The notes under the pieces were generated by a model. It saw only the letters and a program-made list of their open reading frames with translations, searched no databases and was not told where the DNA came from. Position numbers and translations under genes: made by a program. Below are positions 3,355 through 34,135 of a stretch of DNA of 64,000 nt, one piece after another. Numbering within the stretch: the first letter of the stretch is position 1; every line of letters starts with the position of its first letter. Origin of the DNA: Corythoichthys intestinalis (taxonomy: Eukaryota); contig NC_080406.1 of the NCBI RefSeq assembly GCF_030265065.1, forward strand, positions 15,913,094 to 15,977,093, given 5' to 3'.

Positions 3355-3542
3355 GAAATCTCGCCAATGGGGGGCACCACTGAGCTTTGGCGGCCCCTGC
3401 AAGCCCTTGCTCTCCTGCCTCCAACCTGTGGCTTCCGCAATCTTTTCCTGCTGTCCGATGGTCACATCCAGAACGCCAACACTACTTTGCAGTTGCTCAG
3501 GGACAATGTTGAGCACAGCCGCCTCTTCGTGTGTGGCCTCAG
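3355..3542 (+). CDS. VWA5-like exon: vWA domain with the MIDAS 'GGT' motif ('EISPMGGTTELWRPLQALALLPPTCGFRNLFLLSDGHIQNANTTLQLLRDNVEHSRLFVCGL').
   Basis: 'tcag' acceptor at 3351-3354 and 'ag|gtcaga' donor. 'GGTxxxxPL' and 'LLSDG' are hallmark vWA motifs, and the exit phase 2 matches the next exon. Confidence 0.8.
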
Positions 3543-3732
3543 GTCAGACATACAGTCACGATAGACTGCAGGGCAGGTTTTTCTTAAATTGATACAATTT
3601 TGTTTACGCTGAAGTTATTTTCTTACTCATGAGTCACCATTATTATTTGATATCATTACTATTCTAATTGTATTTTTGGGCACAATTACAGTATGATTAT
3701 TATAATCACTTTTGTTAGTATTAGTGTTGCAC

Positions 3733-5387
3733 CGATATCATTTTTTGGCCCCGATACCGATACCTGGCTGTGCAGTATCGGCCGATACCGATACCATACC
3801 GATACCACCCCGTTTATATATATATATATATATATTTTTTTTTTTTCCTTTTTCCAAAGAGCTACATAATTGGATGTGAAATCATTGCTATCAAGGCTTT
3901 GTCAGGCTGTTGCTAACCTTTGCAAAATAGGAAAAAGACTAGTACAAAGTGAATAGTCTATAAACCCTAGTAGACAATAGTTGAATAAACCTTTGGCTCT
4001 CAAAGGCCAAAATAGTGCTACATTTATGAAATTAATAAAACATGTATAATGCTAGCCAAACAGTAAGAAAGTAAAAATAAATTCATAATAATAAACTCAG
4101 AATGAACTGAATAAACCTTTTTAAACCTCTCAAAGGCCAAACAGTGCAACTTTCATGATATTATTGTCACATTCTGCTGCTGGTTAGATTGTGTCTTGTT
4201 GCTGGGCTGGTCATGGGGGCTTTCCTGACGTCGCACCTTAATCCAATCTCATCAGCGCAGCATTTAAGCACGGGTGATCTCAAAGGTATTTTGCCTTGCT
4301 GATCGCCATTTGACATCTCGCACTATAGTCTCGCTACATTTCCTTGTGACGCCCCTGCATTTGGTTTTTTTCTGTTAGTGTGTTGCTCTCGTTTGTAACC
4401 CTATACCCTGTGCAGGTATTCGAATGTTTTTATTTTGGCTTTTTGGCTCGCTGCCTATCGTCTTAGTTAACCTTCGAGTTTGTAGTATTGAGCTCCGTCG
4501 ACCTGCTGTCACGGACTCCTTTTGTTATTTCTTCTATCCTGCGATCGCGTGTTATTTTTTGTTTGCAATCATTAAGCCCTTGTACATATCCCCCGCTTGT
4601 TGTCTGCTTCGAGTTCCCACCTTGTTTCCGCATTTGCGGACGCTAACAATTATAAGTAATAATAACTGACCACAGCATCCTGTCTCTCTATTAGCCTCCT
4701 TTTTTCGGGAGGGGGGAGTCCCTTATTTCTATTTCTGAAAGGTGGCAACCCTACTTTGGAAACAGTTCCCAAATGACTTCGACATTTCTTTCAGTGAAAC
4801 ACAATAAAAGTCAAGTAGACGTAGTGAACTGAACAGAGATCGTTGCTCCGGTCCAGCGCCCTTCTTCTGGATACCACTCCTCCTCTTGCACGCTCAAACT
4901 CGTTGTGTTCGTTCACATTTCGTCTTCAAATGTTATCAGGTTCGAGGTATTGAAATTGGCCAATTTAACTCCACATCTCGAAACTTTCAGGCCGCAAATC
5001 TTGCATGCAGTCAATGATTTTAATCAACGGGATTTCTATTTTGAAATACGTCCCGACCGCCGCCATTACTCCTGGTTTGTGTTTCCTCCATATGAAAAAG
5101 CTGCCTTGTGATTGGTTAGGAGTGGCTATTGGCCCGCTCTCATTGGTCTGGAGTAGGCCAATAGCAATAGCTGCTTGATGTTCACGTGTCATCACACAAC
5201 ACAGAGACAGAGTGTAGTGAGCGCCAGGAGGGGGGAAAAAAAGGCTGCGGTCAAATGTTATAATATTGGACCGGTAAATGGTATCGGCGCCGTCTTTGTT
5301 GGTACTCGCCGATACCGATACCACCATTTCGGGCTGGATCGGCGCCCCCTACCGATACCAGTACCGGTATCGGTGCATCTTTATTTA
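3733..5387. mobile_element. Putative non-autonomous DNA element bounded by inverted 'GCACCGATACCGATACC' repeats.
   Basis: 'ttgcaccgatatc..ccgataccgatacc' at 3733-3810 is inverted relative to 'ggtatcggcg..ccgataccgatacc..ggtatcggtgca' at 5280-5390. It contains a (TA)n run at 3815-3835. Confidence 0.35.
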
Positions 5388-5546
5388 GTATGTGTTGGCC
5401 AGAGGAAGATGGCTTTACATGGGGATTAAATGAACACATTTTAGTGAATATAATTGACCTAAATTGATTCAATAGGGTCACTGGTAACTGAAGATTTATT
5501 AGTTGTCTTTTTCCAATGGGCTATCTGAGTTTTGTTTTCTTTTTAG

Positions 5547-5646
5547 TTCTACAGCCAATCGGCACATGCTGGGGGCCCTGGCCCAGGCAGGGTGTGGAGC
5601 TTATGAATATTTCAATGCCAAACAAAAGCACAAGTGGGCAGAGAAG
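5547..5646 (+). CDS. VWA5-like exon, end of the vWA domain ('STANRHMLGALAQAGCGAYEYFNAKQKHKWAEK').
   Basis: 'ttttag' acceptor and 'gagaag|gtgaga' donor. The entry phase is compatible with the previous exon ('ag'+'t' gives Ser). The peptide resembles the VWA5A 'GIARASGG' segment. Confidence 0.8.
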
Positions 5647-5753
5647 GTGAGAAGATATTTGGGACACTGGCGTTGATGTTTAAAATTTGATTTCCTTTTA
5701 ACATTTGTACTGCTTGCAGTTTGTGAAATAAACATGTCTTGTCTCAATCACAG

Positions 5754-5924
5754 GTGGCTCGTCAGGTCAGGCGCATGGAGTCTCCTGTCTGCAGTTCAGT
5801 TTCAGTGAAGTGGCAGCAGTTCACCCGATCGGCACCCCCTCCTGTGCAAGCCCCCAGGCAGCTCCATGCTCTCTTCAATGACTGCCACACGCTGGTCTAT
5901 GGCTTTGTGCAAAACTGTACACAG
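5754..5924 (+). CDS. VWA5-like exon ('VARQVRRMESPVCSSVSVKWQQF..LVYGFVQNCTQ'). The 3' end is uncertain and may lie at 5894, 5924 or 5933.
   Basis: 'cag' acceptor at 5751-5753 and an open frame continuous with the previous exon. No strong GT donor is present, so the donor is either GC at 5925 or a weak GT at 5934. Confidence 0.6.
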
Positions 5925-6493
5925 GCATGCTATGTTCACTTATTAAATTCAGTTATTTTGAACAGCTTCCTCTTGGCTAAATATATTCAAACTAGGGATA
6001 CACTGATTGGGGTTTTTACGCTGTCACGAAATAATTTGGAAAAACTCATGTTTACTTTTTCCGACACAATATAAAATCTGCGGTAACTGAAGACAATTTT
6101 AGATAGGGAAAAGACTGTATTACGAGTGTAACTTACGCACATCAGGCTGGAAGAGCCAGCTGTCTTGTATAGCTCATGTTTGTTTTCATCTTAAGATATT
6201 TACTTCCAGGTAACACAGTGTGGGAACAGGCGTATATTCTTTCTTTTTCTTTTCTGCGCACCCGATTTATGACGACTCGCCATGTTTAGAGTTTATAACA
6301 ATGACATATTTTTATTTCCCGCTTCAGGACACGTACGTAGTGTAGCCTTGAGTGCACCAGAGCGGGGTCAAACCATTCTCTACTAAGACAGAGTTGGTGT
6401 ATGTTAAGGTTTTTAAGTATGTATTGAGTAGAACATAATATTTAATCAGTAGATGATTTAAATAAAAATATATAAAAATATGTTGACGGGCTT

Positions 6494-6522
6494 GGGTGCA
6501 AATACTTCTGCTCCTCACTGTG
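6494..6522. repeat. Solo Tc1-like terminal inverted repeat fragment, same family as the element at 51482-52984.
   Basis: 'gggtgcaaatacttctgctcctcactgt' matches the right inverted repeat at 52958-52984. Confidence 0.5.
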
Positions 6523-6570
6523 GATATTGGAGGACTGATCTTAGTTTTCTGCACTCCCCACCTGTCTTAG

Positions 6571-6651
6571 GCCACCCTGTATGGAAACCTAAGTGGTCAA
6601 GAGCTGACAACTATGGTGTCCACCAGTGAACTGCAGAAGACCAGGGGCACG
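6571..6651 (+). CDS. VWA5-like exon ('ATLYGNLSGQELTTMVSTSELQKTRGT').
   Basis: 'cttag' acceptor and 'cacg|gtaaga' donor. 81 nt, in frame with no stop. Confidence 0.75.
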
Positions 6652-6747
6652 GTAAGAGGCTGCAGTTCTCTGGAAATTAGCATGGGGTAGGTTGTTATCA
6701 TAATGATGACGTGGTTGGTAATTGCGCTGTCGTGTGTGTGCAATCAG

Positions 6748-6828
6748 TTTCTTCACAAGCTCACCGCAAGAGCTCTCATCAGAGACTACGAGGATGGAAA
6801 CTTGCATTCCAATGAAGCTGAACATGAG
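6748..6828 (+). CDS. VWA5-like exon ('FLHKLTARALIRDYEDGNLHSNEAEHE').
   Basis: 'caatcag' acceptor and 'gag|gtgcaa' donor. It follows an 83-nt intron, and the 'ALIRDYEDG' motif is typical of VWA5 proteins. Confidence 0.8.
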
Positions 6829-7168
6829 GTGCAAAACAGTTGGTCATTGTAATAGGTAACAAATATGAGATAACCACCCAACATTGAAGAGCATCTCAGT
6901 AAATAAGAATACTCATGCTAAAACATGTATTTATTCACTCATGCTAAATCGCAATTACTTGGCATTTGCCCCATTGTGGGCAGATGGGGCAAAAAGTAAG
7001 TCATTTGCATGACACAGAACTTCCTTTTCAAAATAGGCTAATTTTACATGAAAAAATGGTGAAAAGTGTGTTATAATTTTGATCCTTTGAGTATTTTAAC
7101 AAAAGCATTTTATAAACATTTATAAAAGCACCTGGGTACTGTTTTATGGTGTATCTTTGTATCCATAG

Positions 7169-7264
7169 AGCGAGAAAAGCCAGTTAAAGTCCTTCATCAT
7201 TGATTTAAGCAAAGAGTTCTCAATTCTGTCCCAGTTCACCAGCTTTGTGGCCATTGAAGAAAGG
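7169..7264 (+). CDS. VWA5-like exon ('SEKSQLKSFIIDLSKEFSILSQFTSFVAIEER').
   Basis: 'atccatag' acceptor and 'agg|gtttgt' donor. 96 nt, in frame. Confidence 0.8.
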
Positions 7265-7367
7265 GTTTGTATTAATTAATTGTATAAATTAATAGTAATT
7301 AATTCTACGGGGATTCATCTGTCTAACAACTCGCAAATATGTCATAAAATTCTTTTGGGCATTTTAG

Positions 7368-7526
7368 GAGCCGGTTCAGGCAGAGCAGGGCTTCACAGAC
7401 ATCCCCAAGCTATTGGCAGAAGAGGATGTAGATATCCTTCCCTACATCGACTGGACATCTTCTCAGGCTGACGGAGAAGTGGATGAGGATTTTGCTTTAT
7501 GGGGCATCCAGAAATCTTTGGGAGCG
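7368..7526 (+). CDS. VWA5-like exon ('EPVQAEQGFTDIPKLLAEEDVDILPYIDWTSSQADGEVDEDFALWGIQKSLGA').
   Basis: 'attttag' acceptor and 'gcg|gtgagc' donor. 159 nt, phase 0 to 0. Confidence 0.8.
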
Positions 7527-7782
7527 GTGAGCAATGTTCCCTCTAAGATGCGCGTGTGTGCAATCGCGCACTGCTTGCACATACTCAGCGCACAAGACAA
7601 TCTATGCAGCGCACAAAATGAAATCCAACAGAAACGTATTGTAGTGTCACTGTCAGCGCTGCAGTGATGTGTCAGCGCGACACTACTGAGTCCTGTTTGT
7701 GCGTTCGATACGGCAACGCGATGCTCCTATTGGTGCATTCAATGCGTCAAATCGACACTCCCATTCAGGTGCCTAGCCAATA

Positions 7783-8956
7783 GGGGTGTAACGGTACACA
7801 AAAATCTCGGTTCGGTACTTACCTCGGGTTTGAGGTCACGGTTCGGTTCATTTTCGGTACAGTAAAAAAACAAAATGCAAAATATTAATGTGCTAGTTGT
7901 TTATTACATACTTTTGTGCTTTCGACAATAGGAACTTTAGCCTATACAAAGCTAGAATTCTGCTCAAAAAGTAGCAGGTATTTAAAGATAATCCAACAAC
8001 AATTTGCCTTTCAGACCCCGCGTATTGGTCTTCTTTGTGAAAGAAAGAAGAAAAAAGAAGTCCTGTGCTAAAGCGAGAAGCAATCCCAATGACAAAGATT
8101 TTAACATTTTACAAATGAAATGCCTCAATGAAACTTTTTTTTTTCTTATGAACGGTTTTCAAAAGCTTTATTGGTGGATTTTCTCAAGTTAAAGCGCCAC
8201 ACAGAAATTAATCAATTTAATTGTGTAAGTAATTGTGATGTAGTATTCATTTAATATTGTATATTTTATGTTGTATAACTTTAGTTCCTATGTGAATATT
8301 AGTTCCTACTTGTTTTGTTGTGGTAGGAGCGTTTTGTATTGAACACGGGGCCGTGTTGGTTATTATTGTAGCAGAGAAGACAGCCGTAAATCAACAAAGA
8401 CAAGTCAACTGTGCCCGATCTACCACTCAAGAGATCTGATGGACTCAAAAAGTAGGTTACGGTTGCATATTAGTTTGAAAATCGACCGGATCCACCGTAT
8501 TTTTACACGAGTGACTTCCGGTCTGCCCGGTCTGCTAGCTAGTAGTATTGACGCAGGAGGGCCGTGTCATTACTCGTCTCGAGTCAAATAATAAACTCTG
8601 ACGTTCTTTTCGCATGCGTCGCGTTGAGCCGCTTCTGGGACGTATCTAACATGCGACCACACTGCGACTGGTGTGCATTGGCTGATTGACTCTAACGCCC
8701 GCGTTTCACTGCGTTCTCCCGGCGGCCACGTTGTCGCGCCGTTGACGTTTCTGGTCTGTCCTACCGTGTTGGTCCTCATTATAGTAGAGAAGACAGAGTA
8801 AATACAATCTACACAAAGAAACTGTAACCCGATCGACTCACAGCCTCGAAAAGTAAGGGTTATATTACGTCAGAAACTCGTTCGGTACGCGTCCGTTCCG
8901 AACCGACTAGCACGTACCGAAACGGTTCAACACTATTACATGTACAGTTACACCCT
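7783..8956 (+). mobile_element. hAT-type MITE, about 1.2 kb, with 'TAGGGGTGTAACGGTAC' inverted termini and an 8-bp target-site duplication 'CTAGCCAA'. An inverted copy lies at 46412-47673.
   Basis: Full-length reverse-complement match between 7783-8956 and 46412-47673. Flanking 'ctagccaa' is duplicated at 7773-7780 and 8959-8966. Each copy has an internal direct repeat of about 120 bp. Confidence 0.7.
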
Positions 8957-10174
8957 TACTAGCCAATAATACGATACAGTTGTCAGGGAAGCTGAAGTTT
9001 GAACTCCAAGACAAGTGTTACCTCGATTGCTCGATTAGAGAAATGAATCAGACCAACCAATGATTGCCTGCTTCGAATACTTTATATAAAGACTTGATGC
9101 ATCAAGGATACAATGGCGTGATCCGGCAAGGAGCCGTGAACTCGCAAGAGTACAAAGAAGTACTTAGTATTTATACTGTTGAAAGGGCGTTACCCAAAGA
9201 TGCTTACTGTGAAAAGATACCTATGAAAACGAAAGTGAAACTTAAGTATCAACTCTGGTGGTTTTCCACAGAAAAACATTGTGACTTACAACCTTGAGAA
9301 CATGACCGTGGCTGGCACCAAAAAGGAGTTAAAATCTGATCAGACAGTCAACAGAACCTGTTATCTTATTTTTAATAGATTTACACTGAAAACATGGGAA
9401 TTTGACTTGTTTTAAAGAGGTGTGTTTTTGCAGTGCAGCTGCTCAGACAGAAAGGAATAGGAATCTTGAGTGTCCTTATTGTCTGAACAGTTTTAATATG
9501 GGAGTTTGGTATACTGTACTCCCATTGTGGTTGTTCATTATGATTTATCAACTCAGCCATGCTACAACTCGACCTTACTCAGGCCAAAGCAGGACTCTTC
9601 CTATGGTTAAAGCGGGATTCTCACATATAACATCGTACACATCTCATGAACGAAATTTTTGTCTTTTTCATTTTGAAGTGGGCCACATCAATTATATTAA
9701 AAGTAAACTAATGAAGATTGCTGCCGTATTTTCATTCTTTTAATAAGCCATGTAGCTTGCTATGATCCAAGGATTTGAACAGTCGTGATACTGGTGTGTG
9801 GCAACAGTGTACACATCTGATGTTGCTCATTGTGTTCCACTATGGAGGTAGATTTGTGTCTTTATTATTCAATCAAAAAATAAGTTACTTCAAATAAAAA
9901 ATATTTTCAAAATAAAAATCACCTCAATCAAAAATACAAAAATTTCAATCTTAGAAAAAAAGTTTTTGAATGCGAAAAAGTATTTGAAACTCAGAAATTT
10001 GCATTTTAACACTCAAATTTTCTTTGAAACTGTTTTCTTTGATTGAAGCAATCCTTTTTCCTGTGATTTAATAATTTAGACACAAATGTCCTACACATAA
10101 TATGGCACAAACACAAAAAGGATTGCTGAATCTGAATCATTCTTCATAAAATCTGGTCTCATTTAAATCTACAG

Positions 10175-10330
10175 TGTTGGGACAACATAATGGAACCACC
10201 TAACATTTTGGCATCAGATGAGGATGAAGAAATCCTTCCCTACATCAAGTGCGAATCTTCTCTGGCTGACGTAGAAGAAGAAGAGGGTTTTGCCGAAATG
10301 CCTCTGCACCGCATCCAGTCAGAAAAGAAA
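10175..10330 (+). CDS. VWA5-like exon ('CWDNIMEPPNILASDEDEEILPYIKCESSLADVEEEEGFAEMPLHRIQSEKK'). It is a paralogous duplicate of the exon at 7368-7526.
   Basis: 'acag' acceptor and 'aaa|gtatgt' donor. 156 nt, phase 0 to 0. The peptide shares the motif 'E(D/E)xDILPYI..SS.AD.E.(D/E)E.F' with the exon at 7368-7526. Confidence 0.65.
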
Positions 10331-10859
10331 GTATGTGATCCCTTTGCAATTTATTACCTTTCCAAATCAATTGGCCATAAAATGTGGTCTGATCTTCATC
10401 TACATCAGAAGAAGAAACTTTAACAGAATTGCAAGGACAAGTAAGGGAACCTCTACTTGAGGCCCGCGAGGTTTATCTATCTGGCAGGCCCGTTATAGGT
10501 CATTCATACAGAACATAAAAATCACATGCTTTTATTTTGACATTGGTGCCGTAAAACTAGATTTGTGATTTGTATGATCGAGTGTGTGCACAATTGCACT
10601 TGGCTCACTTTCGTATCCGCAGTTACATTCATTCATTTGCCCTCTCCCAGTCAAAATGGATTGGATGTTCAGCACCATCGAGGGCCTTAGGTTAACAAGG
10701 AATAGACCCAAAAATACCCTAAAGCCAACAGGAAGTGACACCAAACAACAGGAAGTATCCTTGAAAAGGCCTAGAATCAACAGGAAGCAGCCCGGAAATG
10801 CCCCAAAAATTAACAAGAAATAATCCAAAATTTACAGGAAGTGACTCGTAAATATCTTA

Positions 10860-11207
10860 AAGGGAACCACGGATAGAAGGACATGTAATTCTTAAAAGGT
10901 AAATCTTAGTAAGAGTCATAATAATTAGTGCTGTCAAATTTATCGCGTTAACAGGCGTTAATTCATTTTTTAAAATTAATCTCGTTAAGATATTTGACGC
11001 AATTAACGCATGCACGGAATGTTCATGCGTTGCCTCAAACAGTTTACAATGATGCCGTTTTAGCACATTGAGAGTGAAAAGGCAGAGAAATGCGAGCGGA
11101 CACAGGACTGCGCCTTTTATTGGCTTAAGCTTTGGCAACTCTTTCACAACAATTATAAGTATTGTGGTGAACGACATGGTGAAGAATGACAGGAGATTAT
11201 TTTTTTT
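10860..11207. repeat. Interspersed repeat. A related copy lies at 16600-17060, and the start includes an hAT-MITE end ('agtgctgtcaaatttatcgcgttaac').
   Basis: Shared segments 'ggcagagaaatgcgagcggacacagg..ttggcaactctttcacaacaa' and '..gagaactggcattc..acttactcagacttt'. Confidence 0.45.
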
Positions 11208-11745
11208 CTTAACACTCTTAATTGAACACAACGCAGAATATACTGTATGCCATTTGCGGCCACCACTGACAGTCATGGTTGCCCAACTTCCCATTATGCA
11301 TTTGGGCCGAACAGTTAAGTCGCTACAGTATCATTTAGTGGAAGCACATTAAAAATAATATTCGTATCTCTCACAGGAGACGATCTTTTTCTTAACACTC
11401 TTAATTGAACACAACGCAGAACATAATGTATACCATTTGCGGCCACCACTGACAGTCATGGTTGCCCAACTTCCCATTATGCATATGGGTGGAACAGTTA
11501 AGTCACTACAGTATCATTTCGTGAAAACACATTTAAAAAATTATTCCTATGTCTCACAGGAGACAATCTTTTTTTGACACGCTTAGTTGAACACAACGCA
11601 GAACATACTTTATACCATTTGCAGCCACCACTGACAGTCATGGTTGCCCAACTTCCCATCATGCATTAGGGCGGAACAGTTAAGTCGCTACAGTATCATT
11701 TAGTGACAGCACAACAAAAATAATATTCCTATCGCTCAAAAAAAT
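11208..11745. repeat. Tandem array of about 2.9 copies of a 183-bp unit (satellite or minisatellite-like).
   Basis: Units start at 11208, 11391 and 11575, each beginning 'cttaacactcttaattgaacacaacgcagaa..ccatttgcggccaccactgacagtcatggttgcccaacttcccat'. Copies are about 90% identical. Confidence 0.8.
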
Positions 11746-14574
11746 AATGTTCACAAAAAGAAAAGCGCTCAATACAAAGAGAACTGGCATTCCCAATCAA
11801 AGTAGTTATGAAAAATACACATAAAACTTACTCAGACTTTGCCTTGGCTAGATCTCTAATTAATTTAAAACTTAAATGAGAATCTCTCACCTTTCGGCGA
11901 AATTCGCCGTTTTGAAGTAAAAAAGGATGACCTACGTGAATCGTGTAGATCCGAGGAGAAACTTTTTAAGGGGGGGAGGGGGTCAGGTGTAGCCATATGC
12001 CGGTTACCTTCACGGTTTACCATGCTATGAAAACGTCGCTGTTACAAAACCACGAAAATTTTCTTTCATACAGTAGTACGTAACCGTTATTTTTCATGTG
12101 TCAAAAATGTAGCCAGAAATGGCTTGGCGCGGCAGCGCTTACTCCTTACCCTGTTCGATACTGCTTGTGTCAGTTACGCTATTCTAGCAAACCCAAAAAC
12201 AAACACTCCAAACACAAGGCGTACTTTTTTTCAATTTATTGAGCTCTCAAATCGTGGTAACTGAAATATACCGAATGAATACATTTAAAACGTTGTACAA
12301 TCGTATTTTCAACGTGTGAGTAGCTTCAACAGTTTAGCTTCATGAAAAAGTTCGCCAAAAACAAAAACATTTTCCTTTCAAATTCAATACACAAAGTTAC
12401 TAAAAACTTACAAAGACGAATGATAGGCAAGGCTTAGCTAGGAGAGCAACTTCATTGAGATTAATCACAGCCGCTGAGAGAGAAACAAGTTTGAATACAG
12501 CGGGGGGGGAAAAGAGAGAGCGTCAAAGATCGCTAATTGCGACAGATGATCTTGTCCTAAGCACAAATTCACGTTCGCTGGACAAGGAGAGGTCTCACTC
12601 CCATTTTTTTTTTTAGATGAATGCATTTACCAGCATATTGAATTTGGTGAGTGATGGTTTCAATCGTTTTCATATTTTGCGGTATGACAGCTAGCCAAAT
12701 CTCCGGTGAAAAAATAGCTCCCGTTAAGTTAGCGTCAAGCTTGTGTATTTAACGGTAATATAAAAGCAGTGTTATCAGTAACGCGTTATGTGAGTAATGC
12801 GTAACTGTAATCTGATTACTTTCAGTAAAGAGCAATGTAACGCGTTCATTTTTCTAAATCAGTATTCTAAAGTAACTTTCCTTGATGCCTGTGCGTTACT
12901 ATTTTGTTATTGCCCCATTATGTATATAGAAAGAAGAATACTGTAGTCATGGGAGTGACATCACATGTCACATTTTCTAATCGGGGATGGAAAAAAAACG
13001 GGTCACGTGTATAACCATGATGCGTGAGCCGTGAGCGCTGGGAGTTTGTGGCCAAAACAACATTGCCTTGCTACCTCGCCAGGATACAATGAAATAGGCA
13101 GGAGATATACTACAAACGGCTGCATTTGCACACTGGAAACACAGCCAGTACTTCACATTTTTGTCCAATAAAGATGACAAAAATATATCCGGTCGCTGCG
13201 AACTTTGCGATGGCTCTAAAGACTGTCGACCGCTAAAAGCATCCAATTCAAGCACCACTTGGAATTACAGCACAACAAGTAACAAGACAGCCAGGACTTT
13301 TTGACACTGCTCTTGCTCAATCCTCGGTTCAAGCTCAGTTGTTGTTGAAGGTTTTGAAAGCTTAGGTTTAAAGAAATTCTAAATATCCATCTTGCCTCCT
13401 CAGCTGTGGTTTTGGCTAAGCAAAGCAAACGGCTGTCTCTCAGACCCGGCGGCTTGGGCGGGCATTAGGGGGGCGTGCCCGCCCTGAGGGACGGCTGTGC
13501 CCGCCCTAGCTCGATTAAACTGTACTGTGTAATTAAAAAAAAATTTTTTTTTTTTTTTTAATCTTCCGCAAAAACACACACACACGGGGAGAATGAACCC
13601 TATATTCCAGTGTTTTTCAATCGATTGTGCCGCCGCCGCGAGAAATTATCCAATGTCGCTTTTTTTTAACATCGTCGGGCAAAGTTGCAGTAGGAAGGAA
13701 GGAAGGAATGTGGAAAAAGTTCTCGGTTGTGTGCAGATGAGTCGTGTTGCGTTCAAGAACTGCTTGGATTTCTAGCCGTCAGCCACCTTGCTCTCCATAA
13801 CAATGTGGTCCCCAGCACTTCTACTGTTCATTATTTGACTCGTCAAGTGTCGATATATACAAAAGTGTCCTTTCCATTTTATCCATATGTGACGACCGTT
13901 AATCCTCCCTCTTTGTTTTATTCCAACACATTATCGAGGACAGCTAGGTGGGAGATACCTAGAAATCCGAGCAGTTCTTGAACGCGACACAAGCGGCTAT
14001 CTAGCACCATGGCGCCAAATAAGCTTAAACTCATCTCCAAATGAACCCCCGTCGCTTCAGAATAAGTCGATGGATTATTTTGTGCGCCTTCGTGAAAACA
14101 CAGAGAAATGGGCAACTTTTTTGAGGAAAACTACAAAGGTAAATAAGAACGCCCTGAAAGCCAGTTACTTTGTTGCTAAATCCCAAAAGTCCCAAACTGT
14201 GGCAGAGACGTTAATACTACCTGTCTGCAAAGCCATTGTCAGCGAGACGACCAGCCCTGATGTGCTTAAATGCATTGCTCAAGTCCCCTGTCTGATAGTT
14301 TTTCAAGCCTAATTGCTAAACGTTTCACACTGAGTAAGTATAAATACTGAGAAATTATTTTATAATTAAATATACAATACAGAAAGTAATTTTGGAACAT
14401 TTTGGTGTGGTGTGCCGCGAGATTTTTTCCAACGTAAAAACGTCCCGTGACTCAGAAAAGGTTGAAAAACACTGCTCTAGTCATCCTATCTTGATCTGTC
14501 GTCACAATCACAGCAGCGAATGTAGGCAATTTCTAGCCAATCACAGATAAGGGGGGCGGGCTGAGTAGCCGGTG

Positions 14575-18009: not shown

Positions 18010-19385
18010 CTTTGTGATGTCCAGAGGTGGGTAGTAACGCTTTGCATTTACTCCGTTGCAGTTACTTGAGTAACCATTTGAGAAAAATTTACTTTTGTAT
18101 GTAGTTTTACCACGCAATACTTTTCACTTTTACTTAAGTAGTTTTTTTTTTTTTTTTCAACCTGTCCTGTTGAGCTGTTTGACACAGAGAATGGAAGTCT
18201 TCGTGCCAGGATAGTCTGAACAGTTTTAATGTTTCACAATAAGAGTCTGATATACTCCCATTGTGATCATTCAAGATACCTCGTTTATTATGACAAACCA
18301 GCGAACAGGAAGGGGTTATGGGGGGACAGAAGAAAAGAAACACAAGAAAAGAAAGAAAAGAAACACAAATTACAAGAAGAAATACATTGAACGTCTAGAC
18401 TAACTACTAATATGTTGGTGCTATCTTCAGCTAGATGTATTTCCGGTTAACACCATGTGGGGGCCTGTTGACCAGGGGGAGAGGGGGACGGGGGTGGGGT
18501 GTCTATAAGCTAAGTGATTGAAAGGGGTAGAGTGTACACAAATCAGCTCCGTGATCTAGAACCTAGTAATCGTGTGAATCCTTTTTGAGTGTAAGCCCGT
18601 TGGCGACCGACCCTACCACGCCCCATCGCCAATCCCAGCACCGGGACCCCCCACCCGAGCGCGCCCTATCACATCCTGCCGCACGCGAGCCCCACCAGGC
18701 GCGCGACAGCCACGCAGACGAGCCAAGACGCCACGCGGGCGCCAACCCAGGGCCCCGGCCCCCAGCCAGCCCGGGGAGGGAGGGCGATCCAGGGGGGCGG
18801 GGGGGTGCTCCGCGCAACCCACCCCTCTTCCCGCAGCCAGATTTCTGAAGAAGAAACAATACTCTTACTTTACTACTTTGGGTCACACTAGAGTTGTTAC
18901 ATTTTTCCTCTTTATTCCACATATTGACTTTATTTTTGCCAGAGATCCCGACAGTGGCTGTCTCAGTTTCACCAATGAGACGTCGCAACAATAACCACAT
19001 GACCCCGTGATACCATTCAGGTGTAACAAATGTTTTTTTCTCTACTCGAGGGCACTCATGCTGCGTTTTTCTGTCCTGAATTCAATGATATGTCTGTCAT
19101 CTTTATGGCCTAATATGGTCTTATAATAGGTTATAGCACAGTATAATAAAAACAATGAATATAGATGAAGTTATGCTAAGAAAAAAAATACCATTATGAA
19201 AAAAAATTGTCATTTTAAGCAGTTACTCACAATGTTACTCAGTACTTGAGTACTTTTTTCAAAGAATACTTTTTTACTTGTACTTAAATTTTTGGATGAC
19301 TTACCTTTACTTGAATAATATTATTTAGAAGTAACACTACTCTTACTTGAGTAAAATTTTTGGCTACTCTACCCACCTATGGTGA
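18010..19385. mobile_element. MITE with long terminal inverted repeats ('CAGAGGTGGGTAG..TACTTGAGTAA') enclosing a 280-bp GC-rich core.
   Basis: 'ccagaggtgggtagtaacgc..ttacttgagtaacc' at 18012-18075 is inverted relative to 'ttacttgagtaaaatttttggctactctacccacctatgg' at 19342-19383. Confidence 0.55.
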
Positions 19386-20758: not shown

Positions 20759-21744
20759 AGTTCCAGTGCTGTGTCATATCCTTCATTTGCCCCCCAAAAA
20801 TCGGTAAAACGGTTTAAATTGAAGAGTGATGGATTTGGAACAATGGACACCGAGGTTCTCCATCCATCCTTCCTTCCTGTTCCAGAATCAATTCCTATGG
20901 CTTTTGCTGCTGGTCCACCTCCTCTAGCAACCAGACATTCGCTGGAAAGCTTACCTCTCCCTCCAGCAGACAGCCCATCAGTTTTTCATCCAGTATCTCT
21001 TGCTGTACAACCTCCACTTGGCAGCTCATTATTGGTTCCTCCATCACCACATACTGGCAGTCTATCATTTGTTGCTCTCCCACCACCACCACCACCACCA
21101 CAACAACTTCACAGTGTAGTATTGGAAGCCGCTCCATCTCCATGTGAAGAACATTTGACACGCGCTGGCAGTCCATCATCTGTTGATCTTCCTCCAACGC
21201 CACCACCTACCCCACGTAGAAGATGTATTTCATCATTTAGCAGCAAAAGTAAACGACGTGCAGAAAAGATTTCACAGATTCCCTTTGAGTTGTCCAATAT
21301 TGAGCTGAAGGACATGGAATTCCAATTTTCTGGGCCGTCACGGTCTTCCTTGGCCATTTCAGACAGGCTGGCAAAACTGCCGTTCAAGAGATCTCTAGGG
21401 TTAACCCCGTCATTCGGTCACGTCAGATCAACATATGACGCCGATGGTGGGCCGCCACTTCCAGAATACCAGTCACCCGCTCCTTCAAGCAACTCCAGTG
21501 GTGGTATTGGTGATCAATGTACCACAAACAGAGGTCTAGATGAATTTAGACGTCCTAAAGCATTGAAGAAGAAATTGTTAGAACGTCAGGGATCAACCCT
21601 GTCTGCTGAAAACAAATCGACTCCGTTGGGGTATTTACTTGAAGATTCAATCAAGGCTGCACCTGACAAAGTGTCATTTAAAAAAGGAACTCCACAACCT
21701 TCGGTTTTTCTATATCCCGGAACCACAGCCCATATGACCCACAG
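20759..21744 (+). CDS. Large 986-nt exon of the VWA5-like gene encoding a disordered Pro/Ser-rich region ('..LPPPPPPPQQ..PPTPPPTPRRR..').
   Basis: 'ttttcgtag' acceptor, whose TAG is the in-frame stop just upstream, and 'acag|gtaaga' donor. The frame is open for 328 codons. Confidence 0.8.
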
Positions 21745-21984
21745 GTAAGATCCCAAACATGTCTATTTGATTAAATGAAAAATTATTTCAAGCGGTAGTG
21801 TCAAACATAAGGCCGGCGGGCCAGCAAGGGTCCAATCCAACCTGCAGGGTTGTTCTGCCTGACAGGCACGTTTTATTTCACTTATACACAGGGGTGAAAG
21901 TGGCTAGAATTTCTTGCCGGAACTCCCCGACGTGAAGGTCGCCACGGAGCCAGAATTTATTTTTTTTCTTTCTTTCTTTCATTT

Positions 21985-22003
21985 GGGGGGGGGGGGGGGG
22001 GGG
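21985..22003. repeat. Poly-G tract of 19 nt.
   Basis: Homopolymer run. Confidence 0.9.
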
Positions 22004-22389
22004 TCAAACCTCTTAGACTACTGGAATGCTAAGAAAACTGTTTTAGCACAGTTATTTCTATAACACATACAAAAACTGATTTTCATTCAAAATGGTATTT
22101 TTTCAATGATTTGCAGATAAAAGTTAACAAAAACAGCAATACCCTCAACCTCCATCTCCTAATTTTCATTTTCCCTCATTTCCTCACATACTAAATGCCA
22201 AATCTAGGATGTGTATTAAAATTGAATTTAATGTAAACATTTATTTTATTTTTTTAAATAACAAAGATATAAGTAACATACAGTCGGAAAAATAAGTACA
22301 AATGACTTACATAATGCAGAGTGAAATGGAATATATTTTGAAGATCGCGCAAACATTGACTTTTTTAAATCATAATATAATGAATACGT

Positions 22390-23130
22390 AGCCTAAATTA
22401 ACAAATATAAGTCCAAAGTGCACATTGACAGCTAACATGTTCTGAACCTCCCCATCACAGCAAATAAAACAAAATATGATAAATAAGCCTCCTCAACTCT
22501 TTCGTTGCTCTTAAAGATTTGATCCATTTTATGTTGCATTGCCTTTTTTGTTGTTGCATCAATTCAACAACCTTTTTTTTGCTGTTCCAGAAAACATGCA
22601 AATTAGAACCAATCAGAGCAAACTATCTCTGCGGATCACATGTCAGTATATCAGCCAATTGAACAGATAAATGAGTCCAGGCGTTTTACTTTGCTGCGTT
22701 CATTCACACATTGATGTGACTCATTATCGTCAGGTTCAGATAACTGCATCAGTTGGGGAACCTCCATGCCGTCCATGGAATAAAATAAATTATTGGTGGA
22801 AATGGATTACGCGACACAAGCACTTTATTATGCTTGTTATTAACACTTGTGTATGTAAATCTGATGTTGGTAGATTGTTTTCTTCATGGAGATGAAATGC
22901 ATGTGTGGCAGCTTGGCATTTTTTGTTGTTGTTTTTTTTTTTTTTTTTACACAGCGTTTTGACAGTTGCTGTCATATTTTCGGAATCAAAATACCATGTA
23001 CTGGAACAGCATTCCAACCTTGAAACTTATACCGGAACTGCGTTCTGGCACTGAATCTTATACCGGAACTGCGTTCCTGACTGTTCTGGCCCACTTTCAG
23101 CCCTGCTTATACAGTGCATACAGAATCACA
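22390..23130 (+). repeat. Interspersed repeat, family R2, non-autonomous with an internal poly-T. A second copy lies at 40930-41500.
   Basis: Over 85% identity by eye, for example 'aaccaatcagagcaaactatctctgcggatcacatgtcagtat' and 'gttttgacagttgctgtcatattttcggaatcaaa..cttataccggaactgcgttcctgac'. Confidence 0.6.
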
Positions 23131-24260
23131 TGCTTTTTATTGCGATACGAGCTCCGAAACCATTGTGGCTTGGGTGAGGGCGTCATTGATGTGCACCTTG
23201 CGGCGAGTTGTAGTATTTGGACTTCTGTGAGCAAGTATCTGTGAGGTCAGCTACGAACGTCAGCCATGTTTCACTGTGCTGAACTGTCCACATGGTTTAG
23301 ATATTGTAGTGGGTGTGCGGTGCGGAATGTTTGGTTTTATGATGCAGATTAACTGATATTTTAACAGATGGAGCAAGTTGTTTGTAACGGTGATCCACAG
23401 ATCTGTTTATGGCGGAAAACACTCAGGGGACTTGAAGTTCCGTTCCGAGACCCCCAATTTAGCCAACTTTCAAAATTGTATGATATGTGTGATACATCAT
23501 TGGAAAGCTTAAAATCTGTATTTTCTGGGGGAAGAAAAATTTTGAACAGGTGGGCATTTCGGAAAAAAAAAAAAGTTTTTTAAACAGCAAAACCCCATCT
23601 GGAGGTGAGAGCATGCGAGAGCAAAATTACAGACACCATGACTTTAATGAGATATTATTGCGTACTTACCTTGTTTCGATCCAAAAAATCCATGTAGCTT
23701 GCATCACCGAGTGTCAAGACACAGCTGTGAATGGCCACAGCTGGATTTTGGGGGGATTTTATGGGTGAAACATGGTAATATAACAAGGGTCGCGATGCAG
23801 AAATCACAGACATCAAGGAGTGGTCGAGATTTTCTTTTTTCATATATTTACCCTTTTAAATGTTTTTTCAATTTTTTTTTTTGTCTGGATCGATTATTTA
23901 TCATCTAACATATCGGAAAAAATGCGACAGTAACAAAAAAAAAATACAATTAAGTGATAGTTATGAGGTAGATATCCGTGACTTTTTTACAGACGCCATT
24001 TTTTTCATTGTGACATAATTTGTTTAAAAGTTTAAAATATGTGAGTCGATTTTTTTTTAAAAACGAAATATGAGACATCAATTAATGATTGTAAGCTACA
24101 GACGACAGACGTTTTGAATAATGAATACAATTAATTACCTCCGTTTTATGGCTGGGTTGAAACAAAAGCGGTTGCGCGACGTCTTTAAACGGGGATTTTC
24201 AGTGTAAAATGGACAAATTAAAAATAGTTCGGGGGCTAAATAAGCCATGAATCTGCTATG

Positions 24261-25812
24261 GCAGGGGTCCCCAACCTTTTTTGCACCACGGACCGGTGTG
24301 GTATGTGTCTTTTTTCACGGACCGGTGTTCTGTCAAATTTTGCACCCTTATTAAATTTTGCTCCCAAAGCTTTTGTGGCGGTGAAAAAAAGCACTCTTTT
24401 ATATTCCGTTGGACTCTCAATGTTATCAAACAGTGCTAAAAAACTATTTACATCATAACCATACATGTGCAACACGAAAATGGCATAAATTATTGCGTAA
24501 CGACATGGCGAAGTCGTTAAGTGAGAGAGCGCCGTGCAGTTGTTGTGTGCAGCTAACGTAAGTTAAGATTTCTTTCTTTAAAGAAAGTTTGTAGTGTATA
24601 CTTTGGAATCGCTGCATTCGTGGTCATTTTTAACGTTACGCGTAAGCCTGTCGCAATATGCAATAATTCCATTTATCGCGCGATAAATAAAAATGAACGT
24701 GGTCATTTTTCGCTGCGATTTATCGCCTCGTGTGCAAGTGCGTGCGCGCGTGCGGCAGACGTGCTGTTAAAAGTTCGGATTCCTCATTACCAACTGCGCA
24801 AAATGCATCTTCGTTCCACGTCCGGCATAAACTAGCGCCGGATCGTTCCCATTATATCCTATTGTTCAACGTATACCGGCCGCGCCAGTGCTCCGGAGTG
24901 GACCATCTATGGGGCGCCAGTGTTGTTGACGTGTGGGCGCTCCCGTCAGGAGTGACATTTCACGCGGGGCGGCTATTTTTTGGCACAACGCCGAATATTT
25001 ACAACGAAGTACGCCAAAACGTTGTTACCGACTTGGCTGCTACGAACAACCTGAATGAAATTAAGAGCGCTGTGCATCAAACTCGTCCTGTTTATGAAAG
25101 TCGATTGTCATATGCTGGTGTTGTGTAGTAATGAGCAGACGTGACTTCAGCGGCGCTTGCACTTTTTTAATAGATATCATGAAATGGCAAACTAGATCTG
25201 CTACGTCCCATGCCATTGGCTACGTGAGCCCAGAGTGATTATGGGACACGTAGTCCGTATACTACATCGATGAATTCTAAACTGTCATGACTGAATGGAA
25301 GTTAAGAAGGCCAAATCAATCCATACCAGTGACTATAGATAATGTTGCAAATATTGTTAATTCAGTACGTGACACAGATGGATTCGGACCACAAATAGGA
25401 TGTCTTGCTCATGTAGTAAACCTAGCTGCTAAGAGAGCTGTAGCAATCAACAGTGTGCCCTGCCTCACTTTACAAACAGTAAAGATTGTTCTCAGCACTT
25501 TTATACAATTTTTTTCAGATCAGTAAGAAGTAAGCACATAAATATTATGCACTAAAATGCATGTTTATATGATGGCAATTTAATTTTTGCTCGTTAGCAA
25601 AAAAACAAAAACGAAACAAAAAATATAATTTTTTTTTTTTTTTTTTTTTTTTACAGAGCATTAAATGTATTGAATCGGAACAAAAATCGTGTCGCCCGTA
25701 TCAAAAATCGTACCGAACGGTGACTTAACTGTATTGTTGCATCCCAATGGAACACCATTGCAGAAGCTATGACGGGAAAAGTTTTCATTTGCCTAAATGC
25801 TTAAGTTATTTA

Positions 25813-25850
<38 letters not shown>

Positions 25851-27011
25851 ACATTTTATTTATTCTGTGTTTCTGTGCGGTATCAATATTGTTTTTTTTT
25901 TTTACTTAAGAGGCATGGTCTATTGTTTTTAGTTGTGATTTCTTAAAAAGTATCTTTGAATTTAAGAGTAAATATCGCGTTTAAACGGGTGTACTTGATC
26001 TATTAATATATACTGTATTCTCACTGTGTTATTGTAAATTGGTTAAAAAAAAATTGGGGGGGGCCGCAATAATATCGCATTTCGCAATAATTTATGAGAA
26101 TAATTATCGCACACTAAAATTTGTTATCGCGACAAGCCTAGTTACGCGCATGCCAAATTTGTCAGAACACCGGCAATGTGCGGCAAAAAAATATAACAAA
26201 TATAAAATAACTTTGTTTTTAGCTCCGTCGTGTTAAGTGCAGGGAAAATACAACTCACCTGCTGAATCAGTGGGAGGCCTGAGCTTGTTTTGTTGAGACG
26301 AAATAGTCCCGAGATGGGAAAGTGACAGAAGCCCGCTTCACAAAGATACGATGTTGGAAATTGTAGGACAGTTTTCAGTAACCTCCTAGCGATGTCAGGA
26401 TATTCCGAAATGACTTTAGTCCAGAACCTCGGTAGAGTTGTTGTCTCAAATGTACGTTTAAGGTCGCCGTGATTTGCGATCTCTACAAGCTGATATTCCT
26501 GTTGCACAGACATGCTCGAATCTCTCGGTTCATTCACATACGGGTCACGAATTCACTCCTTCGCAGTTCATGGGTCTTTAGTGACTGGGAAGTAGCATAG
26601 ATTTTGTTTTCTTTGAGGTTGTAGGCTCATCTTCTTTTCCCTTTTCCCCGTAAAAAAATCTGTCCAAAGACGTCTGTTTTTCAGTCATTCTCATGTGGGG
26701 GCTAATTATTTCCAGGAGCAAATGTGACGGGCGACGACCTACGTCATACGTTATTATCGAGGCCGAGCGCACATAGATATACAAAACAAGATGTACTGCT
26801 AACAGTCCAATCAATGCATTTCTATGACGACCTCCTATCCTGTAGTTGTATATCTAGAGTAGACAGGGATATTGGTGTGTTCAGCGGCACAGGCCAAAGT
26901 CAATCAGCCAGAATGCAGTCATTAATAAATAATTTATTATTTCTGCGTGGCCCGGTACCAAATGTGCCACGGACTGGTACCGGTCCACGGCCCGGTTGTT
27001 GCGGACCCCTG
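24261..27011 (-). mobile_element. hAT superfamily element (Charlie-like), 2.75 kb, decayed, with perfect 8-bp target-site duplications 'TGCTATGG'.
   Basis: Terminal inverted repeats 'CAGGGGTCCCCAAC' at 24261 and 'GTTGCGGACCCCTG' ending at 27011. 'tgctatgg' occurs at 24253-24260 and 27012-27019. Internal transposase remnant at 26142-26537. Confidence 0.8.
26142..26537 (-). pseudogene. hAT transposase C-terminal dimerisation-domain remnant ('..LPRFWTKVISEYPDIARRLLKTVLQFPTSYLCEAGF..').
   Basis: The 131-aa ORF carries the hAT-Charlie signature 'FW..EYP.LA..A..vL.fP.SYLCE.GFS', comparable with GTF2IRD2 and ZBED5 C-termini. It lies inside an element bounded by terminal inverted repeats and target-site duplications. 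Confidence 0.7.
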
Positions 27012-27409
27012 TGCTATGGCACCATATAGACATGTTGTTCTATCAAACACCGCAGTTGTTTTGGCTTAAAATACGGCAGTGTTTTATTGAATTACAATGT
27101 TAAGAAATTACATTTTCAATATGATTTCCATTATTATCAAAATGCGTAATTTGATGTGCCTTGCAAAATTCAGGTGAAATCGATTGAATAGGTTTACATT
27201 GCTGTCGAATAAATAAAAGAGTAAAATTCCTATGTACCCAGACTTTGTGGAGACCCTGAACATCAGCTTACTTGAGATCTAACTGTCGCGAATGTGCCCG
27301 CGGATCAAAATGAGTTTGACACCCCTGCTTTAAAGATAACCTTGTATGTAATTCCATTTTTACTCACCATTTCATGCATAAGATCGGTCAATATTAGTGT
27401 GTGACTTGG

Positions 27410-29369: not shown

Positions 29370-29507
29370 AGTAAGTTAAGAAATTTACTTCATTTTTTTT
29401 CTTCAAACCGTTTGACAATTTTTGCTGCGCAGTAACTTTAAGAGCCTTTGCAGCAACAAAACATAATAAGCAACACACCCTTGCAACATCTTAAATATGT
29501 GTTACAG

Positions 29508-29610
29508 GATGGCTTCTGGGAGTTGACTGGAAAACTGGCCAAGTTTGTTGACATGGACCTGGATGTCTTTGTCAATGAGTTCCTTGAAAGTAAAGGTATC
29601 CGCTCTCTAG
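29508..29610 (+). CDS. VWA5-like C-terminal exon ('DGFWELTGKLAKFVDMDLDVFVNEFLESKGIRSL').
   Basis: 'gttacag' acceptor and 'ctag|gtaaga' donor. The 'DG(S/F)WEL' motif is typical of the VWA5 family C-terminal region. Confidence 0.7.
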
Positions 29611-29947: not shown

Positions 29948-30077
29948 GTGTAAAGGCCCGCGCTGACATTCTGAGGCTCCTGGCGACTCTCCTAGTCCTG
30001 CAGATGATGCGTTTGGCGAAGCTTCCAGAAGGTGTACTACTGCGTACACTCTTCTGTCTGGAGGATGCTCCTGTCAG
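29948..30077 (+). CDS. VWA5-like C-terminal exon ('GVKARADILRLLATLLVLQMMRLAKLPEGVLLRTLFCLEDAPV').
   Basis: 'gcgaag' acceptor chosen because it is the only phase-compatible option. 'tcag|gtaaag' donor, no stop in frame. Confidence 0.55.
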
Positions 30078-32245: not shown

Positions 32246-34135
32246 GAGCCGAAACTGGCTCGCCGCCGGGGGCTGGCTGATCGGTGAAGACAATCACAAT
32301 GAGTCGAAGTAGTTTTGTGTAATTTTTTTGTTTTCGAAAGGCGAGAAAGAGATTTGGAAGAGTCGCTCGGTTCGGGTTAGCATGTCGCCTAGCTCTCATA
32401 CCTCCTGTATTGTTTACGCTCTTTCCTCCATCACCGAAGCCGGGGCAGGGACATGAGAAAAGCCGGACTGACTACATTGGCATAAAATACCATTCGGGAG
32501 GTGTAAGAAGTTGAATGATTTGACCATTATGCAGTAATTTAGCCCTGTTGTACTGAATAAATGCATTTTTAATACTTCATATTTCATTTACCACAAGACT
32601 GTTATTTGTCATAACTATACAATTTTTTAGCAATTGGGAAAAAATACTTTGATAAAAAGAATATCCTGTATGATTTTGGAGTAGAGAGATAAAAATCATG
32701 ACATTTTGCTGCTCTCTGTCACATTTTCCTCGTTCTGAATCTTCCTCCTCCATTGGGCTGAATTCTAAATCAGCTGAAATCGTTACTCTGCTGACGTCAT
32801 CACCCAGATGGCGGCGCCAGAGTGCCATAATGACAAGAGTAGCTAAACAGCAGATTGAAAAAAATGGTTGTATATAGTCAAATCGTCTCAAATTATAATT
32901 TCAATTCCCATAATAATTCTATTTAATTTAGATTTTTTTATGGTGTCACAGGCACTTTAAGATCTAGTGATTGTGCTGGCCACTCCTTTTCAGATAGAAA
33001 AACAGCTGCTTGCTTCTTTGCTAAGTAGTTCATACATAATTTGGAGGTGTGCTTTAAGTCATTGTCCTGCAGAAGGATAAGATTTGCTCCAATAAAGTGT
33101 GTTATTTGGCCTACAGGCCTGCCTTTTTTGAACATTCAAGTCTTAAACTCTGTTTCATATTTAGGGAGATTTCGCTTGTCTTGAGTTTTAAGGATTTAGG
33201 ATTTATTGTCATAAGATTTCTCAGTCCAATTCTATGTGACGCCTCGACAGTGTATATCTTATTTACATCCATTGTATTTTTTTTTTTTAACTGTTTGGCG
33301 CAAACCAGGCCAAACCATTGGCAGGAAGTGAAGAAGGCAGTGGACTGGGCCCGCTGGGCCGACCGCCAGTACCCGTGCATCTGTAGCCGCCTGGAGTTCG
33401 GTTTAACTTGGGAGTCAGCAACCCGCCAACTACTGGGTCATGATGACATCCCCGCCTTCTCACCCCTTGCCGGCCTAAAACTGAGGACGAATATGTCTGC
33501 TGCCCTCGACTCTGTGGTGGTCAGCTAATTGGTACTTCTTAAAACACATTTTCAATTTTTAGCAGGAGTTAATGAATTTGCAGTCCTCCAAATAAGGGTT
33601 GAACTCTGTTTCCTAAGAAGAAAATCCCGGTAACACTAGACTTGAATGGTTATCATAACACTGTCAAAAGAAAAACCTGTCATGAACGTGATTGAATTTG
33701 AGAGATGTCCTAACGAAGTTCTAAGCCTAACATAGTTCCTAACTGATAGGCATTTGAAACTCTGCCAACTTTGCAAGAAAAGGGACCTAATTTGTGGAAT
33801 GAAACTGCAGGGGTTTTAGTGTTTTTATGTCAGTTTCTGTTTTATTTCACTTGTGTATTTCTTTTGCAGTAGGTTCCACCTCTGATCATTGAAGGCATAC
33901 ACAGCTAGAAACAGTTCACCAATCAAGCCATCATCCAATCAGCATCTGCCTTCAGTATTAGTTCAGTTGTTTGCTTTGTTCAAGGGAGGTGGCAGTTCTC
34001 GATTTGTGTTGGTACTTTGATTATGCTATATTGTTTTGCCTTGTTATAATTTAGCTCTTGAATTTTGCCTTTTGATATTTGGTTTTTAAAGTGATTGATT
34101 TATTAATGTTCTAATTCTGTCTTCGACTTCATGTA

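Follow-up and report, generated by a model that had tools for sequence, protein, structure and literature searches.

PARP4 is the poly(ADP-ribose) polymerase that is carried inside vault particles. Its largest exon (exon 30 in human) is highly variable in length and sequence among vertebrates and is under positive selection in primates and bats, and host-pathogen (host-virus) conflict has been proposed as the driver of the diversification of the PARP4 linker (Daugherty et al. 2014, PMC4038475). A stretch of 64,000 nucleotides (nt) from Corythoichthys intestinalis (NCBI RefSeq assembly GCF_030265065.1, contig NC_080406.1, positions 15,913,094 to 15,977,093 of the forward strand), which is referred to here as the window and supplies the coordinates given below, carries a gene that is identified by sequence similarity as the fish ortholog of PARP4. 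The variability published for this family lies in the largest exon, whereas the change seen in the window is the duplication of a small exon just upstream of it, with a motif that is conserved from fish to human. The two exons concerned, A and B, are paralogous; A is the conserved exon, and B is probably (our estimate is about 0.55) a genuine but weaker exon that is included in tandem after A in at least some mRNAs.

Two classes of described exon pairs come close to this arrangement. As in tandem exon duplications generally, A and B are adjacent homologous exons on one strand, agree in phase, are multiples of 3 in length, and encode repeats that lie outside recognised domains. Mutually exclusive exons are nominated by similar length, the same splice-site type and reading frame, and homology, and are taken to encode the same embedded structural element (Pillmann 2011, PMC3228551); in human, 1,399 of 6,541 mutually exclusive candidates were validated by RNA-seq, and it was emphasised that many neighbouring exons resemble each other without being mutually exclusive (Hatje 2017, PMC5740500). 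The A/B pair resembles the pairs of both studies in length, phase, splice-site type and homology, and differs from them in that it has no enforcing feature and encodes a segment that is probably not an embedded structural element. The parts of the pair are as follows.

7368..7526, + strand: exon A, the conserved PARP4 ortholog, encoding ...FTDIPKLLAEEDVDILPYIDW and an acidic tail (159 nt; AG/GT borders and translation)
10175..10330, + strand: exon B, the candidate second copy, encoding ...PPNILASDEDEEILPYIKC and an acidic tail (156 nt; AG/GT borders and translation)
7527..10174, + strand: intron between A and B (2648 nt, GT-AG), without similarity to the other flanking introns
7417..7495, + strand: high-identity homology core in exon A, 82% identical to 10215-10293 over 79 nt (blastn E 2e-18)
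10215..10293, + strand: high-identity homology core in exon B, in the same codon register as 7417-7495

The borders were read directly from the sequence as ...cattttag/GAGCCG...GGAGCG/gtgagc for A and ...atctacag/TGTTGG...AAGAAA/gtatgt for B, which confirmed the two exons of 159 and 156 nt and phase 0-0 that had been proposed in the earlier note, and the peptides quoted there are present in the two translations. The two exon lengths are multiples of 3. Upstream, the neighbouring exon stops at 7264 in phase 0, and downstream the large exon at 20759-21744, the next one confirmed, begins in phase 0; since A and B both run from phase 0 to phase 0, either can be skipped or included without a frameshift. 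The stop-to-stop frames around A and B span 99 and 95 codons, respectively. An extra acidic mini-exon was also considered at 10409-10440, where there is an AG..GT segment of 32 nt, and was rejected because 32 nt is not divisible by 3 and the segment lacks a homolog.

The acidic motif of exon A reads ED-V-D-[F/I]-L-P-Y-x-x-W, is conserved from fish to human, and is followed by a variable acidic tail. Among classes of short motif, ED-V-D-[FI]-LPY may loosely fit SUMO-interaction motifs (V-x-[IF]-L with acidic surroundings), which is offered as a lead; it presumably has no clean fit to the acidic dileucine, YxxΦ, LIR (LC3-interacting region) or WW ligand classes. The predicted structure of the post-VWA region together with A and B (AlphaFold model) had a mean pLDDT (predicted local distance difference test) of 41, and no structural inference was drawn from it.

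Paralogy of the two exons, as put forward in the earlier note, is supported at both the protein and the DNA level. The A and B peptides align by BLASTP with 18 identities in 38 positions (E 3e-8), and the DNA is 82% identical over the 79 nt of the core. When the whole window was scanned on both strands with an ungapped 84-nt segment, B gave 66 matches against a mean of 21.4 (standard deviation 4.0) and a best unrelated score of 40, and there are exactly two copies of the A/B block in the window. The richness of both peptides in aspartate and glutamate inflates protein scores, and a chance likeness of two acidic low-complexity segments without common descent might be sought in it. Such an origin is, however, vanishingly improbable: the 82% identity holds in the same frame with an E value of 2e-18, the ungapped score lies about 11 standard deviations over the background and far above the next best, and 15 identical bases in a row cover the non-acidic codons ILPYI.

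The homology is confined to an internal block of about 115-130 nt (approximately 7398-7513 against 10193-10321). Beyond the core it extends over some 21 nt on one side and 15 nt on the other with an identity near 60% (13/21 and 9/15), and the indels of the alignment, of 3, 9 and 3 nt, are all in-frame. No similarity above that of shuffled sequences was seen in the first 6-10 codons or so, in the final 4-5 codons, or in the 200 nt of intron flanking either end (p=0.17-0.51); a 9-mer, TCATAAAAT, that is common to both exons about 30 nt upstream of the acceptors was examined as residual homology and set aside as not significant (p=0.17). Identity within the block is uneven, with 65 of 79 positions identical in the core and 22 of 36 in the outer homologous parts (Fisher p=0.019). 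The proposal of an exon duplication that produced an acidic repeat thus stands as far as an adjacent paralogous acidic repeat is concerned and fails as a simple whole-exon event, since the exon edges and flanking introns are without detectable similarity.

Exon A is, on sequence comparison, the ortholog of an exon present in other vertebrates, and B a copy of the exon A of its own lineage. Exon A is 66% identical to the corresponding toothfish exon, 65% identical to that of the fish locus L004 and 59% identical to human over the motif, and it also matches the grenadier; it corresponds to about residues 1186-1215 of human PARP4, with the motif aligned to human FPDIPKVSELIAKEDVDFLPYMSW. Exon B scores much lower than A against the toothfish, L004 and human exons. 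In an alignment of 11 sequences that included B, the pattern E-D-x-x-x-L-P-Y is invariant. The sequence after the motif is unconserved among species, and the residues SS.AD.E..E.FA at this place are common to A and B and were found in no other species; B was therefore copied from, or homogenised with, the A of its own lineage. Exon B is closest to its own A, at 32 bits compared with at most 18 bits to the second acidic exons of other fish, and by these scores is not the counterpart of those exons.

The internal block, the bare flanks and the uneven identity together argue that the pair is not a fresh whole-exon duplication. In this it is unlike the duplication seen in the grenadier, which is 91% identical and includes intron, whereas A and B have no flanking-intron homology and share an internal block only. 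We infer that an older exon duplication, with a core that gene conversion subsequently homogenised or selection preserved, is the better fit, and that a short templated copy that gained splice sites is a poorer one. The A-type tail at positions 423-557 of locus L016 (EDDEDLIELPLLGLHS) was observed to be nearer to the tail of B (EEEEGFAEMPLHRIQS, window 10280-10325) than to that of A, and the EMPL kept in B resembles ELPLLGLHS of the L016 tail, which suggests that the 9-nt difference between A and B is a deletion in A.

In this lineage an internal part of exon A (about 115-130 nt) recurs 2.8 kb further downstream, where exon B has AG and GT sites of its own in phase 0-0 and lies just upstream of the large, fast-evolving, proline-rich exon. 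Under the reading preferred here, a proportion of transcripts at least would have B joined in frame to A, as a constitutive or a cassette exon, and the protein would then carry two tandem acidic ED..ILPY motifs in a flexible linker, which would be lengthened by 52 residues with a net charge of about -11. Exon B is packaged in frame as an exon: its 52 codons are open, and about 13 of them are glutamate codons (GAA/GAG-rich), which are highly stop-prone, yet there is no stop. When a 129-nt block was placed at 22,500 intronic positions, splice sites at least as good as those of B, in frame and without stops, were obtained in 0.2-0.8% of placements, and a scan of 13.2 kb of intron returned one other interval as exon-like as B (phase 0-0, open, 90-250 nt, equally well flanked). 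The in-frame packaging, the frame-keeping indels and the absence of stops despite the glutamate codons therefore favour a real exon, and the uneven identity argues against a single recent neutral copy, which should decay evenly.

Several observations weigh against this reading. The splice signals of B are weaker than those of A, with a poor pyrimidine tract at the acceptor and A at position -1 of the donor; on matrices that are approximations from published human splice-site frequencies and not calibrated, so that the scores are indicative only, A has 4.9 (acceptor) and 9.4 (donor) and B has 2.6 and 5.3. The values for B do fall within the range of the confirmed exons of the gene (acceptors 0.4-12.6, donors 2.4-11.4), which speaks for B as an exon. 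The 26-codon core differs at 2 synonymous and 13 non-synonymous sites (dS 0.14, dN 0.24, dN/dS about 1.75, not significant), and 2:13 is near the neutral expectation of about 3:12. Among the 11 aligned sequences V, D and W of the motif are lost in B alone, the gecko having Y at the W position, and at every site that could be polarised with an outgroup B is the changed copy, a pattern like that of relaxed constraint.

Exon B was also compared with eight other teleost/vertebrate loci, two spliced fish proteins, the gecko and human; the Austrofundulus locus (L003), which is without downstream exons, was left out. No B-type copy was found at the grenadier and toothfish loci, which cover the gene from the exon preceding A as far as the C-terminal domain; at L011 and L016, which reach from A to the large exon; at L004, L008, L010 (metagenomes) and L015 (Characodon); or in the spliced fish proteins P0020 and P0024, the gecko protein P0015 and human PARP4. 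All of these absences count on the same side. A match to 'EELVPKIKC' in L008/L009 contains stop codons and was discarded as chance. A word-indexed protein search with the preceding exon, A and B returned A-type relatives only; exon B by itself, compared in a full scan with 1.84 billion representatives, matched one spurious repeat protein, and exact look-up of eight open frames of the window gave no match. These database negatives are weak, the matches of the word-indexed searches all being at least 105 amino acids long, compared with 99 and 95 codons for the frames around A and B. Exon B, being absent from all other species compared, is therefore lineage-specific. The earlier note had held that orthologs with only one copy of the motif would speak against the second exon; one copy is indeed what every other species compared has, and this shows lineage-specificity and not a lack of splicing.

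These observations lend themselves to a different account, in which B has no function and is a pseudo-exon, the remnant of a partial copy of A, that is never or negligibly spliced and in which the frame and the AG/GT borders have merely not yet decayed. The neutral-looking substitutions in the core, the loss of three conserved residues, splice signals below those of A and the lack of a B-type copy in the eight loci, the two spliced fish proteins, gecko and human would all be expected of such a relic, and in human many intronic exon-like candidates were not validated by RNA-seq (PMC5740500). It would, however, have to combine in-frame packaging reached by less than 1% of random placements with a frame kept by three of three indels, with flanking introns that have become randomised while the core stays at 82% and identity is uneven (p=0.019), and with a sequence rich in glutamate codons (about 13) that is free of stops. 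On this balance a pseudo-exon is plausible but the less likely reading, and we put the probability that B is a real exon with at least partial inclusion at about 0.55-0.65; splicing of B, and the presence of A and B together in a single mRNA, are what we infer from the sequence evidence.

The alternative raised in the earlier note, that A and B are mutually exclusive exons, so that PARP4 would have two isoforms differing in their version of the motif, is very unlikely. The pair does have the properties by which such exons are nominated (159 and 156 nt, phase 0-0, GT-AG, BLASTP E 3e-8; PMC3228551), but only about a fifth of such human candidates were validated (PMC5740500). The intron between A and B, at 2648 nt, presents no steric block, both introns are GT-AG, and both exon lengths are divisible by 3, so that double inclusion or double skipping would remain in frame and there would be no filtering by nonsense-mediated mRNA decay. 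A search of the introns for competing RNA pairings found none that was convincing, the best being about 70% complementary, which is ordinary for AT-rich sequence. None of the usual enforcing features (a short intron, a frameshift, incompatible spliceosomes, competing RNA structures) is thus present at the pair, and mutual exclusivity is unlikely for that reason; trans-acting repression may act as an enforcer. The premise that both exons encode the same embedded element is doubtful as well, as the motif opens a variable acidic tail and B lacks conserved residues.

Changes at the same exon were found in other fish PARP4 genes. The grenadier (Coryphaenoides rupestris, GCA_002895965.2, L001 1646-1956) has an independent recent tandem duplication of the A-type exon, in which the acceptor-side intron and first codons (1646-1711 and 1855-1922) are 91% identical over 68 nt and the YMAWNAEEED part is 90% identical over 31 nt, the EDVDFLP part being deleted in the second copy; both exons are joined in the deposited gene model P0021. 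In the toothfish (Dissostichus mawsoni, GCA_011823955.1, L002 16546-17207) the 3' end of the A-type exon and the donor region are triplicated with a period of 165 nt at 92-94% identity, followed by a short-period acidic coding run (DESEDES...). In the L004 fish (contig MDSQ01026690.1, about 2415-2552) the A-type exon is followed after about 130 nt by a second acidic exon whose AG/GT borders are good; it encodes ...ECYTDLEEELLELDAVILPKYSPT and resembles A-type exons in protein (E 1e-4 to 1e-3) and not in DNA. L014 has an SEEEST micro-repeat of three units in its acidic tail. In-frame additions therefore recur in this part of PARP4, and the acidic tail after the conserved motif is, judged from these loci, a hotspot for in-frame expansion in teleost PARP4, beside the hypervariable exon (PMC4038475). 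No description of a duplication of the small motif exon of PARP4 was found in the literature that was searched. A further proposal, that the ED..LPY exon is a recurrent target of independent duplication and that multiplication of the motif and tail is adaptive, extending the proposed host-pathogen-driven diversification of the linker to the region upstream of the largest exon, with a short binding element whose copy number matters, is speculative and, at present, unlikely. A gene call at 3616-12309 of the grenadier locus, downstream of the PARP4 fragment there, combines a PARP4 vault-interaction domain with a following VIT and VWA, which suggests a merged prediction or a second tandem PARP4-like gene.

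The gene of the window had been labelled VWA5-like in the earlier note, and this label was replaced by PARP4. The relatives with names returned by the first protein search were PARP4 (Plectropomus, Austrofundulus). In matches to PDB sequences, the window exons from about 6.5 kb through exon A aligned with residues 1096-1215 of human PARP4 (E 1e-35), and the C-terminal window exons (about 29.5, 29.9 and 33.3 kb) aligned with residues 1582-1715, the vault-interaction domain (E 9e-27). The domain PF26156 (PARP4_MVP-ID) is carried by the relatives P0015, P0020 and P0024; a Pfam scan of the concatenated C-terminal window exons gave no domain match, and VWA_3 was matched by a partial domain of the window exons with 27 bits, at the cut-off. 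VWA5A/VWA5B identity was ruled out by the PARP4 best matches and the PARP4-specific vault-interaction domain; VWA5 proteins are not known to have a vault-interaction domain. The VWA5 label is explained by the VIT-VWA module and the ITI-like region with an FTSFVA motif, which VWA5A/VWA5B and PARP4 have in common. As in the PARP4 family (PMC4038475), the gene combines a VWA module, a conserved post-VWA region, a large, variable, proline-rich exon that lies between the conserved region and the vault-interaction domain, and that domain at the C-terminus. The VIT part of the gene lies upstream of the window, and the PARP catalytic part and the N-terminal BRCT lie beyond its 5' end; at the orthologous toothfish locus (L002), PARP and VIT domains are found on the piece of gene directly upstream. 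Apart from A and B, the exons of the gene in the window are the following.

3355..3542, + strand: PARP4 VWA-domain exon (…GGTTELWRPL…LFLLSDGHIQ…); VWA_3 27 bits at the cut-off, junctions read
5547..5646, + strand: PARP4 VWA-domain exon (…STANRHMLGALAQAGCGAYEYFNAKQKHKWAEK); similarity to relatives, junctions
5754..5924, + strand: PARP4 exon (VARQV...VYGFVQNCTQ); donor apparently GC (CAG/gcatgc)
6571..6651, + strand: PARP4 exon (ATLYGNLSGQELTTMVSTSELQKTRGT), phase 0-0; tblastn to relatives, junctions
6748..6828, + strand: PARP4 exon (FLHKLTARALIRDYEDGNLHSNEAEHE), phase 0-0; tblastn to relatives, junctions
7169..7264, + strand: PARP4 exon preceding A (SEKSQLKSFIIDLSKEFSILSQFTSFVAIEER), phase 0-0; donor GAAAGG/gtttgt, tblastn to relatives
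20759..21744, + strand: large exon of 986 nt, rich in proline, phase 0 to 2; open frame and junctions, counterpart of human exon 30
29508..29610, + strand: first vault (MVP)-interaction-domain exon (DGFWELTGKL…); tblastn, borders approximate
29948..30077, + strand: second vault-interaction-domain exon (…KARADILRLLATLLVLQMMRL…); tblastn, borders approximate
33309..33468, + strand: third vault-interaction-domain exon (…VKKAVDWARWADRQYPCICSRLEFG…); tblastn, 3' limit provisional

The order of exons in the window is accordingly 3355-3542, 5547-5646, 5754-5924, 6571-6651, 6748-6828, 7169-7264, A, (B), 20759-21744 and the C-terminal exons. At the exon ending ...NCTQ (5924/5925) there is no GT donor compatible with the frame common to the orthologs. 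The large exon ends in phase 2, and the first vault-interaction-domain exon apparently begins at a codon boundary (ttacag/GATGGC); at least one further exon is therefore expected within the 7.8-kb interval 21745-29507.

The intron between A and B contains one element that can be delimited.

7781..8958, strand not assigned: non-autonomous hAT transposon of 1.18 kb with terminal inverted repeats TAGGGGTGTAACGGTACA

A perfect target-site duplication of 8 bp, CTAGCCAA, flanks it (7773-7780 and 8959-8966), and a second copy of this hAT-type element, 90% identical to 7781-8958, was observed at 46410-47675 on the - strand. From the 8-bp duplication and the TAGGG end we take the element to be of the hAT type. 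An hAT MITE (miniature inverted-repeat transposable element) had been reported in this 2.6-kb intron; the hAT assignment agrees with the duplication, the inverted repeats and the second copy, while the element, at 1.18 kb, exceeds the size typical of MITEs. An inverted repeat resembling a small MITE lies at 9852-10087, 88-323 nt upstream of B, with 24-nt arms that are 88% complementary and 188 nt apart, and the intron downstream of B holds a tandem repeat at 11203-11738 (183-nt unit, 2.9 copies, 89% matches).

Elsewhere in the window, all three + strand frames are open for 92-138 codons at 18570-18991, in a GC-rich-looking segment inside an AT-rich intron whose translations are rich in proline, glycine and arginine. 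Motifs of Tc1/mariner-type transposases (…NWPGNSPDQNPIENLW…) occur in - strand frames at about 52.3-52.8, 56.5-57.5 and 59.5-60.2 kb. Coding-looking + strand segments at about 42.1-42.5 and 63.1-63.6 kb (…ASGLTAADLAHAQGFQECAELL…) may belong to another gene downstream of PARP4, possibly of the ankyrin-repeat type.

The pair described here is an ordinary lineage-specific exon duplication in a PARP4 linker that is known to evolve fast, and it involves no new kind of biology. For annotators, PARP4 is the name that the gene should bear, and a comparison with RNA data should precede any inclusion of B in the gene model. If B is spliced, this fish would have a PARP4 with two copies of an otherwise single motif that is conserved from fish to human. 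Together with the grenadier and toothfish cases, the pair then identifies the motif and the acidic tail behind it as a segment of the vault-PARP linker that is plastic in evolution, adjoining the exon proposed to have been shaped by host-virus conflict, and it offers a modest lead for research on the function of the vault and of PARP4.

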